Shown: positions 1 through 10,290 of the stretch, one piece after another
Layout: the number at the start of each line of letters is the position of its first letter
Numbering within the stretch: position 1 is the stretch's first letter
From: a virus
Lineage: Duplodnaviria > Heunggongvirae > Uroviricota > Caudoviricetes
Reading direction: 5' to 3' (one strand)
IMG/VR virus record: IMGVR_UViG_2778261009_000001
Coordinates: 1 to 10,290 of that record
Length of the DNA: 10,290 bases
Notes under the pieces: generated by a model
The model's database searches: none
What the model was told of the DNA's origin: nothing
Seen by the model: the letters and a program-made list of their open reading frames with translations, nothing else
Translations under genes and position numbers: made by a program

Positions 1-188
1 ATGTTAAATAGCAAGTAGATAAATATACAAGGATGTAAATTTTCACTTTATAAAATATTGCATGTATCTTATTAGTAAATGAAGAACTAAAAAATGGATA
101 TCTATGCGGTTAAAAGGTACTCCTGCAATTTTGAGAATGAAGCGTAGTTTCAGGCACGTTTTCATTCATCTATATGTGAGGGAATTAA

Positions 189-6789
<6,601 letters not shown>

Positions 6790-6790
<1 letters not shown>

Positions 6791-7227
6791 TGCGAACTTC
6801 AGACTACACAATACGGAAATTTTTGATTAATAATCTCAATACTTTGGTAAATCTTCAATATCCATCGAAAGCAACGGTAGACGACAAACCAATGTTATAC
6901 ATCGGTGACAGTACTGTAACACGTTCACGCATTCAAAAAGCAAATACATTAATTAATGGTCAATTAATACCAAGTGAGATTAATTATCTCTGTGAATTTA
7001 GAGTGGACTTTGTAGCAGTAGGTGAAAATTATAAACTTGCATCTGATGAAATTAGTAAAGTACTTGATGCAATCTATGCAAGTGGTTTTATTAATGAATT
7101 GAACAAACTACTTCCAATGGATGTTTTCAATGTTGTTCTGGAAGAGAGCTTAATGACTACCCAGGCCGAAGCAACTAATACGATGTATGTGCATACACAA
7201 ACTATATCTTTTAGCTATGGGGAATAA
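6790..7227 (+). CDS. Tail terminator protein, lambda gpU-like (putative)
   Basis: 145-aa ORF starting in a TAATG stop/start overlap (6788-6792). Size, position just before the tube gene and loose block similarity to lambda gpU (N-terminal helix, CEFRVDFVAVG, C-terminal HTQTISFSYGE vs ADLTYVITYEM). RBS AAGGA at 6779-6783. Confidence 0.45.
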
Positions 7228-7230
7228 TTT

Positions 7231-8913
7231 ATGGCTTTTATTACTAACAACACAAGTGTATGGATTAACACCGACACATTAAACAGTGATCCCAAATCTA
7301 AGGGATTTAAAGAAGTACCAGAATTAAGCGGATTCCCTTCATTCGGTCACAGTACTGAAACCCTTGCCATTGAAACATATGACTCTGAATACATCGAAAA
7401 GGTAGTAGGTAATAGCACCTATGGCGATGTCACTATTACGGTTAACTGGGTTCCATCAAAACATAAGTTTCTCGATGACATCGTAAAAAGTCGCCAATTA
7501 GTACAAATGAAGGTAGAGATCCCCGATGAAGGACAGAATGACCTTACGGTTAACTATGCACTTTATAATGGTTATCTGGCTTCTGTATCTACCAGTGGTG
7601 ATTATGATTCTGTTACTTCCCGTTCCTATGTATTCACCCCAAACGAACAACTTTCTGCGGGTATTCTTGACAGTACGATAGTCCCTCTAAATCGCGGAGA
7701 CTGGGGCGTAGGTGCAAACGGTATTGAGTTTCCAAGTTATCAGGGGCGTGATGGTAACGCTTTTATTAAGATCCCAGGTGCAGGTTCACCAACAGGGACA
7801 GATGTACTTGGTATTAATAACCTTGATTCTAACTTTGGTACACAACTGGTTATCAGTAAGACAGGTACGCCAATAATTAACGTGCGTAACTATGGTGCAT
7901 CTATGGGGGCATGGTACAAGGTCTATACCAGTGCTGATAAACCTACACTGGCAGAACTGGGTGCTGCATCAAGTGCATCTCTTGCAGACTACGTACCGAT
8001 TACCCGTACCATCAATAGCAAACCACTAACTGGTAATATTACACTACTGGCTTCTGATATCGCTGATGTATACAGTAAGACGTATATAGATCAGAACGTA
8101 GTCCCAAAAGTATTCCAGTTAAACGGTCATGCACTATCCGGTACGGCATTAAACTTAGTTGCCGCAGATATTCTTGATGTGTATTCACAGACTCAGGTTG
8201 ATACGTCATTTGTAAAAAAAACAACTACTGTTAACGGTTTAAGCCTTTCCCAGAATATAACACTGACAGCCGCACAACTCCCAGACATGGCGAGTATTGT
8301 TTTTACTAATAACACATATGTACCAAAAACATACTTAATCAACAATAAGCCATTAACAGGAACTAACATTCAATTAGTTGCTGCTGATATTCCTGATGTG
8401 TACTCACGTACTCAGTCAAATGATCTATTTGCACTACGTATCACCACTATTAACGGGTATGCTCTTAACAGCAATATAGTACTGAATTTTGATGATGTAG
8501 GAACATATTCAAAGAAACAGATCGATGACAAAGACAAGGTACTAAAGGAAGAGATTGATACGAAGGTAACAATTGTAGATGATATTCTTAAACTAAATAC
8601 CCTTGTAAATAATTCATTAGAAATAGATTTGAGTGATAGTAAAACTACATTCACAGTGACTCTATCACAACCAACGTCAAACTTCTCTGTACTAAATGCA
8701 AGTGGTAATGACAAAAAGAGTCAAACATTTCAGGTGCTTATTAAACAGGGTACAGGGGCAAATAAAATATCCTGGCCTACAAACATTTTATGGTCTTATG
8801 GGCGTGTTCCAGTATTAACCTTTACAAAAGATTCTACTGATGTATTTCAGTTTGTCACAGTAGACGGGGGTAGTACTTGGTACGGCTCTCTACTAATGGC
8901 AGATATGAAATAA
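7231..8913 (+). CDS. Tail tube protein (lambda gpV-like N-terminal domain) with C-terminal extension carrying phage tail-fibre repeats
   Basis: N-terminal ~150 aa align by eye with lambda gpV ([29 protein letters not shown] vs [46 protein letters not shown] and YNGYLASVS vs YKIRFPNG and FRGWVSSIG). Residues ~257-432 hold five fibre-type repeats, followed by a ~120-aa C-terminal domain. RBS GGGGA at 7218-7222. Confidence 0.6.
   Translation: [560 protein letters not shown]
7999..8526 (+). repeat. Five tandem protein-level phage tail-fibre repeat units (~37 aa each) inside the 7231-8913 CDS
   Basis: Units [66 protein letters not shown] (degenerate), [48 protein letters not shown]. The DNA copies are diverged (GATGTATACAGTAAG, GATGTGTATTCACAG, GATGTGTACTCACGT), so this is ancient repetition, not a recent duplication. 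Confidence 0.65.
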
Positions 8914-10214
8914 TGAAACCACACAATATAGATAATGCATATCAAATGATCGAAGGTCAGTTTAAGTTCTTGGCACGTAATACTGGCCTTACAACAAATA
9001 ATAAGACACAGCACTACGTATTAAACCCGGATAATGTACTTGCAAATAACCGTCACTTTATTGCAGAAACTGGATGGGAAGCACAGCCGGAAGGTGACGC
9101 AACTACAGAAGGTCAAAGCCTCCAGATTCTGGGGGCAATATATGTGTATCAGGCAACTAAAGACCCTTTCTATCTACAGAAGGCAAAAGAGTACTTTAAT
9201 GCATATCACAAGGCGTTCTATCGTGGTGCAGCATTTCCAGATCCACCGAGTTCATCACTACGCTGTAACTGGATTTGTAATGGAAAGGCTCCAGTACTGG
9301 CACACTACCCATTAGATCCCGAATATCCGACGCATGGTGGATTTAAAGGGACACTATTCACATGGGCTAATGGCCTTACAAAGATCCCACATGGTGCTCC
9401 ACACTGGGGTGAATACCTCGATGCAGTATGGTTTGCCTTCCCTAAGCGTGCGGGACTTGGTTGGAATCAGGTTAACGCAACCGCTTATATGTGGCTTACC
9501 AATGAAGACTCAATAGACTGGGACACAAAAGCACCAACCTATGACGTCGAATGGATCATTGATCGTACCGGACGTAAGGTAGACTCAAACGGCACAGTAC
9601 TGCAATCCGGTCTTACAGGTCAGGAAGGTACAGTACAGTTAAAGAATAAAACCATTACTGGTGAATATCGTTTTAACTATGCAACCCGAAACCCTGTAGA
9701 ACATGGCGGGTATATGTTCAAGCGTAATGAACGCTGGCATAACCGACCTGTACACGTACCGATTGATAACTATGGTTCTTTGGACTTCTCTGATAATGCA
9801 TCAGATGCCGAATTATGGTTTTGTCAGGCAGCCAAGTTACTTTGGGATATTACAGGAGAACGCCAGTATTATCTTGCGTGGCAATGTGCACTATTAACCT
9901 GTTATGGTTATTCAGATATTGACAAGTACGATATGTTCTTTCGTAAATCTACTATTGCCGTAACACCTTTTACTGATGGTATTTCATACGACTACTTCTA
10001 CCCAAGTGAGCAAGTAGCATCATATTCCCGTGATGCACAGGGTTATATTGTAATAAATCAAAGTGCATCCGCACAGACGATGTTAGAACAACAATCAATC
10101 TGGTTTAAATTCAATAATAACTCAAAATTTCACATTGAATATGGTGGTGTTGATAATACCAGTACTGAACCGCCCCGGGAATCCTGGAGACTAAACTTCC
10201 TGAGAAAGAGGTAA
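8913..10214 (+). CDS. Hypothetical aromatic-rich protein, possibly tail-associated and carbohydrate-binding; native 3' end removed by IS insertion
   Basis: ORF translationally coupled to the preceding gene through TAATG at 8911-8915 (a TTG at 8877 is an alternative start). Trp/Tyr-rich with helix-pair motifs (ILGAIYVYQATKDPFYLQKAKEYFNAY, WFCQAAKLLWDITGERQYYLAWQ). The last ~16 codons (EPPRESWRLNFLRKR) are read from the IS terminal repeat, so the native C-terminus is missing beyond about 10165. Confidence 0.5.
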   Translation: MKPHNIDNAYQMIEGQFKFLARNTGLTTNNKTQHYVLNPDNVLANNRHFIAETGWEAQPEGDATTEGQSLQILGAIYVYQATKDPFYLQKAKEYFNAYHKAFYRGAAFPDPPSSSLRCNWICNGKAPVLAHYPLDPEYPTHGGFKGTLFTWANGLTKIPHGAPHWGEYLDAVWFAFPKRAGLGWNQVNATAYMWLTNEDSIDWDTKAPTYDVEWIIDRTGRKVDSNGTVLQSGLTGQEGTVQLKNKTITGEYRFNYATRNPVEHGGYMFKRNERWHNRPVHVPIDNYGSLDFSDNASDAELWFCQAAKLLWDITGERQYYLAWQCALLTCYGYSDIDKYDMFFRKSTIAVTPFTDGISYDYFYPSEQVASYSRDAQGYIVINQSASAQTMLEQQSIWFKFNNNSKFHIEYGGVDNTSTEPPRESWRLNFLRKR

Positions 10215-10290
10215 ACAGGATGACTAAAAATACTCGTTTTTCCCCCGAAGTCCGTCAACGGGCAGTCCGTATGGTTCTGGAAAGTCAGGA
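10166..10290 (+). mobile_element. IS3-family insertion sequence, IS629/IS1203-like, left end (partial, continues beyond the window)
   Basis: Terminal sequence TGAACCGCCCCGGGAATCCTGGAGAC starts with the TG typical of IS3-family inverted repeats and is followed by the orfA start. The encoded N-terminus MTKNTRFSPEVRQRAVRMVLESQ matches my recollection of IS629/IS1203 OrfA. Not checked against a database. Confidence 0.8.
10220..10290 (+). CDS. IS3-family transposase OrfA, N-terminal fragment (partial at window end)
   Basis: ATG at 10220 preceded by GAGG at 10208-10211. Translation MTKNTRFSPEVRQRAVRMVLESQ runs to the window edge. Confidence 0.8.
   Translation, partial: MTKNTRFSPEVRQRAVRMVLESQ

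Follow-up and report, generated by a model that had tools for sequence, protein, structure and literature searches.

IS629 is a common insertion sequence of Escherichia coli. It belongs to the IS3 family, and a programmed -1 frameshift links its two reading frames, orfA and the orfB that follows. IS1203 and IS3411 count as isoforms of it, its target duplications are 3-4 bp long, and in four O157 genomes it shows a preference for prophages, where 62% of its copies lie (PMC3271280). For example, a gene labelled rem in the STEC phage PPompW_EH2201 (LC567828) is recorded as 'interrupted by IS629', where the element splits a phage open reading frame and is flanked by a 3-bp duplication. As for the target described below, its closest counterparts in virulent phages belong to rV5-like myoviruses, whose tail-fibre loci contain conserved proteins or domains that hydrolyse glycans (PMC8594841).

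Then, how does the present locus compare with these systems? The window analysed here is the entire draft contig NMAY01000058.1, 10,290 bp long, from the E. coli assembly GCA_002536795.1, which agrees with the Escherichia/Shigella-type host proposed in an initial annotation of the sequence. It carries the virion module of a prophage and, in its last 125 bases, the left end of an IS629-type element (Table 1). The target is a prophage gene, as it is for most IS629 copies in O157, and there is no difference in kind from these; compared with rem of PPompW_EH2201, both the target gene and the type of prophage are different. The best overall explanation, to which we assign a probability of roughly 0.88, is transposition of IS629 into a tail gene of the prophage as a simple insertion that knocked the gene out. 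The 1.3-kb element (IS629, IS1203-type isoform, IS3 family) would have transposed into the prophage of an E. coli strain and landed between positions 10165 and 10166, at codon 418/419 of a 952-codon tail gene, in the same orientation as the virion genes. This is a known element and a known phenomenon at a previously unrecorded site. Beyond annotation it has little significance, being one more IS3-family insertion in Escherichia prophages.

Table 1. Features of the window, with the evidence for those at the insertion.
Feature	Position	Strand	Basis or remark
Nu1-like small terminase	228-785		
gpA-type large terminase	700-2616		
Head-tail joining protein	2626-3165		
Lambda-family portal	3150-4682		
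Protease-capsid fusion	4630-6483		
Two small proteins	6494-6790 and 6790-7227		
560-aa protein, major-tail-protein-like N-terminus, fibre-like C-terminus	7231-8913		
Native 5' part of the interrupted tail gene	8913..10165	+	codons 1-417 and 2 bases of codon 418; intact allele 952 codons
Predicted target-site duplication TAC, or GTAC if 4 bp	10163..10165	.	putative; the window has one copy only
IS629/IS1203-type IS3-family element, first 125 bases	10166..10290	+	cut off by the contig end; matches of 125/125 and 123/125
IS629 left terminal inverted repeat, 25 bp, TGAACCGCCCCGGGAATCCTGGAGA	10166..10190	+	comparison with the ends of a full copy; shared boundary
IS-encoded fusion tail EPPRESWRLNFLRKR and stop	10167..10214	+	direct translation; TAA at 10212-10214
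AAGAGG, likely orfA ribosome-binding site	10206..10211	+	read from the sequence; putative function
IS629 orfA 5' end, 23 codons and 2 bases	10220..10290	+	translation equals OrfA of two full copies

Left end of IS629 and its boundary

Alignment identifies the sequence from 10166 onward, which opens with TGAACCGCCCCGGG, as the left end of an IS629/IS1203-type element of the IS3 family, far beyond chance. The segment 10166-10290 matches 23,338 places in 5,830 records (chromosomes and plasmids) from 3,606 of the 5,426 complete E. coli genomes, and the best of these matches reach 125/125 bases (E = 4e-58) and are all annotated as IS3 family transposase. The copy annotated 'IS3 family IS629' in the phage record LC567828, which is 1310 bp long with the target duplication TAA, is identical at 123/125 positions and differs at 10246 and 10290 only. 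Another 1310-bp copy, on the plasmid pTB-nb4 and flanked by AAC, has a left end identical to that in the window; it is 98.0% identical overall to the O157-type or annotated IS629, and its 25-bp left and right terminal repeats match at 23/25 bases. TAA and AAC are the duplications of known IS629-type copies, as annotated or inspected.

The boundary is sharp. Five copies with unrelated flanks all start to match exactly at TGAACC, and the left terminal repeat, which begins with 5'-TG, is identical in the annotated IS629 and in the full 1310-bp copy. Some E. coli matches (H45-H53) seemed to reach 20-30 bases upstream of the element and to share its junction; on alignment their flanks proved to be unrelated and the extension a matter of chance. 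The ATG at 10220, 54 bases into the element, opens MTKNTRFSPEVRQRAVRMVLESQ, the first 23 residues of IS629 OrfA, identical in two full copies; residue 24 is D, as in the pTB-nb4-type copy, and the full OrfA matches NF033516 (IS3 family transposase) in a profile search. AAGAGG lies 8 bases before this ATG and overlaps the final codons of the fusion reading frame described below. The terminal repeat from 10166 and an orfA running in the direction of the phage genes had both been read correctly in the initial annotation. It should be noted that the identity rests on 125 bases, which are too few to tell the IS629 isoforms apart, as the other ~1185 bases lie outside the window; the frameshift site, ~330 bases into the element, also falls past the contig end.

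Junction and fusion reading frame

Gene calls and relatives agree on the ATG at 8913 as the start of the interrupted gene, and this codon shares bases with the stop (TAA) of the 560-codon gene before it. The first T of the element supplies the last base of codon 418 (ACT), and the reading frame continues from ...DNTST into EPPRESWRLNFLRKR, so that the fusion product has 433 residues, 418 native and 15 IS-coded; read-through of this kind with a stop at 10212-10214 had been claimed before and is borne out by the translation. All three frames that enter the left end of the element close before orfA, either at once (TGA) or after 8 or 15 codons (TAA), and the insertion is in the 15-codon phase, hence the length of the tail. 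The fusion C-terminus is real, and it is a trivial by-product of the insertion phase. By exact look-up the fusion protein is on record as WP_190319087.1, from one contig only. This entry should be read as a truncated IS-fusion artefact of the 952-aa tail protein, not as a genuine 433-aa protein.

The junction region was folded in search of an RNA structure that could protect orfA from read-through, and the fold was no better than that of shuffled sequences (z = -0.29). A sigma-70-like site (TTCACA, 17 bases, GATAAT; 10/12 matches) is located at 10129-10157, just upstream of the element and pointing inward; such sites are no more frequent in this region than expected by chance.

Empty sites and relatives

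The whole window was searched against the 5,426 complete E. coli genomes. FDN-24 and FDN-9, clonal isolates from chicken, cover positions 1-10167 at 99.8% identity, and N61, a bovine isolate, covers 6491-10167 at 97.5%. Over 6966-10167 the DNA of FDN-24 is 100% identical to the window, and the first 418 residues of the tail protein are identical to those of the FDN-24 allele (P0037). None of the FDN-24, FDN-9 or N61 matches runs on into the element, and the overrun of two bases (TG) past 10165 is common to the IS end and the target. Across the site, FDN-24 and N61 read ACCAGTAC-TGCAATGTCAG (ACCAGTAC|TGCAATG), and both continue as ...GATAATACCAGTAC-TGCAATGTCAGT... through the insertion point. 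The comparison with these empty-site alleles shows a target uninterrupted across 10166, with no IS there.

The insertion at this site was absent from 5,426 of the 5,426 complete genomes. In addition, the phage part of the window had no match in a plasmid collection, and the junction had none in a collection with one genome per species, a result that carries no information because the source is a non-representative E. coli draft.

Position in the tail cluster and nature of the event

The element cuts the 952-codon gene after codon 418, and 534 more codons follow in intact alleles. In FDN-24, at least eight more tail-cluster genes on the same strand lie past the interrupted gene. They encode, in order, a tail protein of 158 aa, two proteins of ~97 aa, one of 753 aa (called a tape measure in a single UniRef entry), three of 184 aa, 214 aa (DUF2163) and 129 aa (DUF6950), and a tail tip protein. 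Because both the gene and the cluster continue in FDN-24, the element interrupts a gene in mid-cluster. The initial annotation had instead let it end the operon, a reading in which it sits at the natural end of the gene and of the operon and little is lost apart from a changed C-terminus. What speaks for that reading is that the window ends there, and against it stand the 534 additional codons and the same-strand tail genes of the empty-site alleles, by which it is refuted and left with practically no probability. Short-read assemblers break at multicopy repeats, and such a break typically shows itself as a draft contig that ends inside a multicopy IS. NMAY01000058.1 breaks 125 bases into such an element, and its end at 10290 is best taken as a break of this kind. 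The window, being the complete draft contig, would stop where it does because of this repeat.

What, then, became of the other half of the gene? The expected right junction was modelled from the full IS copy and the downstream sequence of FDN-24. It would consist of the IS629 right end CCCGGGGCGGTTCA, followed by (G)TAC-TGCAATGTCAGTATCTGC, or also (G)TAC-TGCAATGTCAG, and in this model the first ATG after the element is Met420, two codons past the insertion point. Seven candidate remnants were looked up exactly. The remnant that runs from Met420 to the end of the protein (P0148, 533 aa) occurs on a single 14,454-bp contig at NCBI, and its sequence is identical to the C-terminal half of the FDN-24 protein, while the six variants that start in the right end of the element (a 3-bp duplication with an earlier ATG or GTG, or starts at a contig edge) are not on record. 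With a 3-bp duplication the frame of the remnant stays open into the element and has earlier ATGs, so the Met420 start of the recorded remnant fits either a 4-bp duplication or a choice of the gene caller. For a gene caller to choose this start, the gene must be disrupted no more than ~30 codons upstream of Met420. This contig is very probably the partner of the window, a candidate put forward on sequence grounds, and the lone Met420 remnant speaks for a simple insertion and against a deletion. The insertion would then carry a duplication of 3-4 bp (TAC or GTAC), with the rest of the gene and of the tail module on another contig. An earlier reading, in which the 3' half was absent and its best homologues were 72-73% identical, was dropped when its own 114-member cluster turned out to be present by exact look-up. 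The word-indexed protein search had missed this cluster, which is the query's own, and the lack of close matches in that search carries no weight.

A deletion or rearrangement mediated by the element deserves consideration, in which IS629 marks a breakpoint, the 3' half and perhaps the tail module have been lost or moved, and the prophage is a remnant. The window shows the left junction only; IS629-mediated deletions in O157 are documented in work cited in PMC3271280, and matching duplications were present at just 21 of 47 IS629 sites, so that about half are without them (PMC3271280). However, one NCBI contig alone carries an exact 533-aa remnant of the FDN-24 sequence whose start lies two codons beyond the junction, this 14.4-kb contig is long enough for the remaining tail genes, and the start called at Met420 needs a nearby upstream disruption, all of which make such a loss improbable. 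It is still less probable that the last 125 bases were misjoined to the phage contig while the genome itself carries an unbroken gene. In favour of a misjoin, the IS part is a short stretch of a multicopy repeat at the extreme end of a draft contig. Nevertheless, the join coincides with base 1 of the terminal repeat, as in a true insertion, a separate remnant with a Met420 start exists, and an intact gene would have given the assembler a unique path across the site. Simple insertion of IS629 is therefore preferred.

The broken tail protein and probable consequences for the prophage

The intact product matches phrog_2871 ('tail protein') with 1206 bits over residues 2-950, of which the window holds residues 1-418 only. 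Proteins of rV5-like phages (Vequintavirinae such as 4MG, PHB05, JohannJBalmer and inny) that are annotated as tail protein or lateral tail fibre protein fall in the same PHROG and share ~54% identity with it across 100% of its length. The interrupted protein fits the conserved component of glycan-hydrolase type in the rV5-like tail-fibre locus (PMC8594841). In contrast to these 140-kb virulent myoviruses, the broken gene here lies in a temperate prophage with a lambda-type terminase and portal and a tail module that contains a tape measure. Mosaicism is also visible, in that a gene 54% identical to that of a virulent rV5-like phage sits beside prophage tail genes of the DUF2163 and DUF6950 types. 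Searches of Pfam, NCBIfam and the PDB (sequence and profile) with the interrupted protein gave no match.

In an AlphaFold model of a homologue with 83% identity (pLDDT 76), each terminus carries helical hairpins, and beta-rich domains separate the two sets. These terminal hairpins probably form one (alpha/alpha)6 glycoside-hydrolase-like barrel, an assignment made on a medium-confidence model of a homologue. Compared with (alpha/alpha)6 glycoside hydrolases of families GH8, GH88/GH105 and GH76, to which the sequence identity is 7-12%, the barrel seems to be split by ~600 residues of beta-rich insertions. The site of the IS maps to residue 406 of the model, in a loop of the first beta-sandwich. 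According to the model, neither fragment would hold a complete barrel, and with a cut at this point loss of function is likely, that is, the gene is likely knocked out. The initial annotation had called the module at least partly defective, which holds insofar as at least one gene is broken. As a mildly useful by-product, an (alpha/alpha)6 glycoside-hydrolase-like fold can be predicted for a widespread, unannotated family of rV5-like tail proteins.

As for the genes downstream, the full IS copy contains only weak terminator-like sites, at chance frequency, and the ORFs of the element together with a restart at Met420 would leave little untranslated RNA. With no convincing predicted terminator and little RNA left untranslated, the tail genes downstream would probably suffer small or modest polarity. 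The prophage would still express most virion genes, and the virions would lack the predicted glycan-targeting tail component. A prophage copy without an intact glycanase-like tail component would probably be impaired as a phage.

Decay of the gene and of the prophage type elsewhere

Further disruptions are found among relatives. In N61, the same tail gene carries an IS3 with the end TGATCCTACCCACG..., simply inserted near base 2361 (L001:12787-14042) and followed by the 3' 500 bases of the gene, a second and independent IS knockout. In FDN-24, an element of ~1.33 kb annotated as IS3 family transposase lies in the 145-codon gene that corresponds to the second small protein of the window (window 6966-6971, L002:14958-16287), which is an independent insertion in the same prophage type; its size would fit IS2. 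Truncated alleles (P0042, P0044, P0047 and P0051) occur in the same 90% cluster, with E. marmotae, E. albertii and E. fergusonii among the hosts. For example, the 490-aa allele of E. marmotae ends in the foreign residues IDWPPESPDNQYHLNK, and the 550-aa allele of E. albertii ends in ...RISD where a partial E. coli protein starts with RISDD, which suggests another break point in the sequence.

Could these disruptions reflect more than decay? One could propose an uncharacterised family of glycan-degrading tail proteins, with a split (alpha/alpha)6 barrel, no Pfam entry and no solved structure, shared by temperate Escherichia prophages and virulent rV5-like myoviruses and repeatedly disrupted through selection on lysogens to silence it. 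This proposal is improbable. Intact alleles of 952/953 aa dominate, on ~106 contigs among the cluster members listed, and therefore nothing beyond random decay is indicated.

Other observations on the virion module

In the 560-aa protein upstream of the interrupted gene, phrog_158 is matched at residues 3-140, and phrog_7760 and phrog_9017 are matched at residues 405-558, while no Pfam match was obtained for it. An Rfam search with the whole window gave no match. In the linker of the protease-capsid fusion, a run of Glu-Ala repeats is specified by a perfect tandem repeat, (TGAAGC) x 7.3 at 5361-5404. It is two units shorter in FDN-24, and the repeat is accordingly length-polymorphic between near-identical prophages. 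Just upstream of it, imperfect repeats of 48 and 27 bases (5169-5298) encode a very acidic stretch rich in Glu and Ser in the same capsid-fusion gene. At window positions 1096-1140, in the large terminase gene, FDN-24 lacks three bases at a run of eight A and has one extra base 36 bases further on. Because of the resulting frameshift, the FDN-24 terminase is annotated as two pieces, whereas the large terminase gene in the window is intact, with 638 codons.
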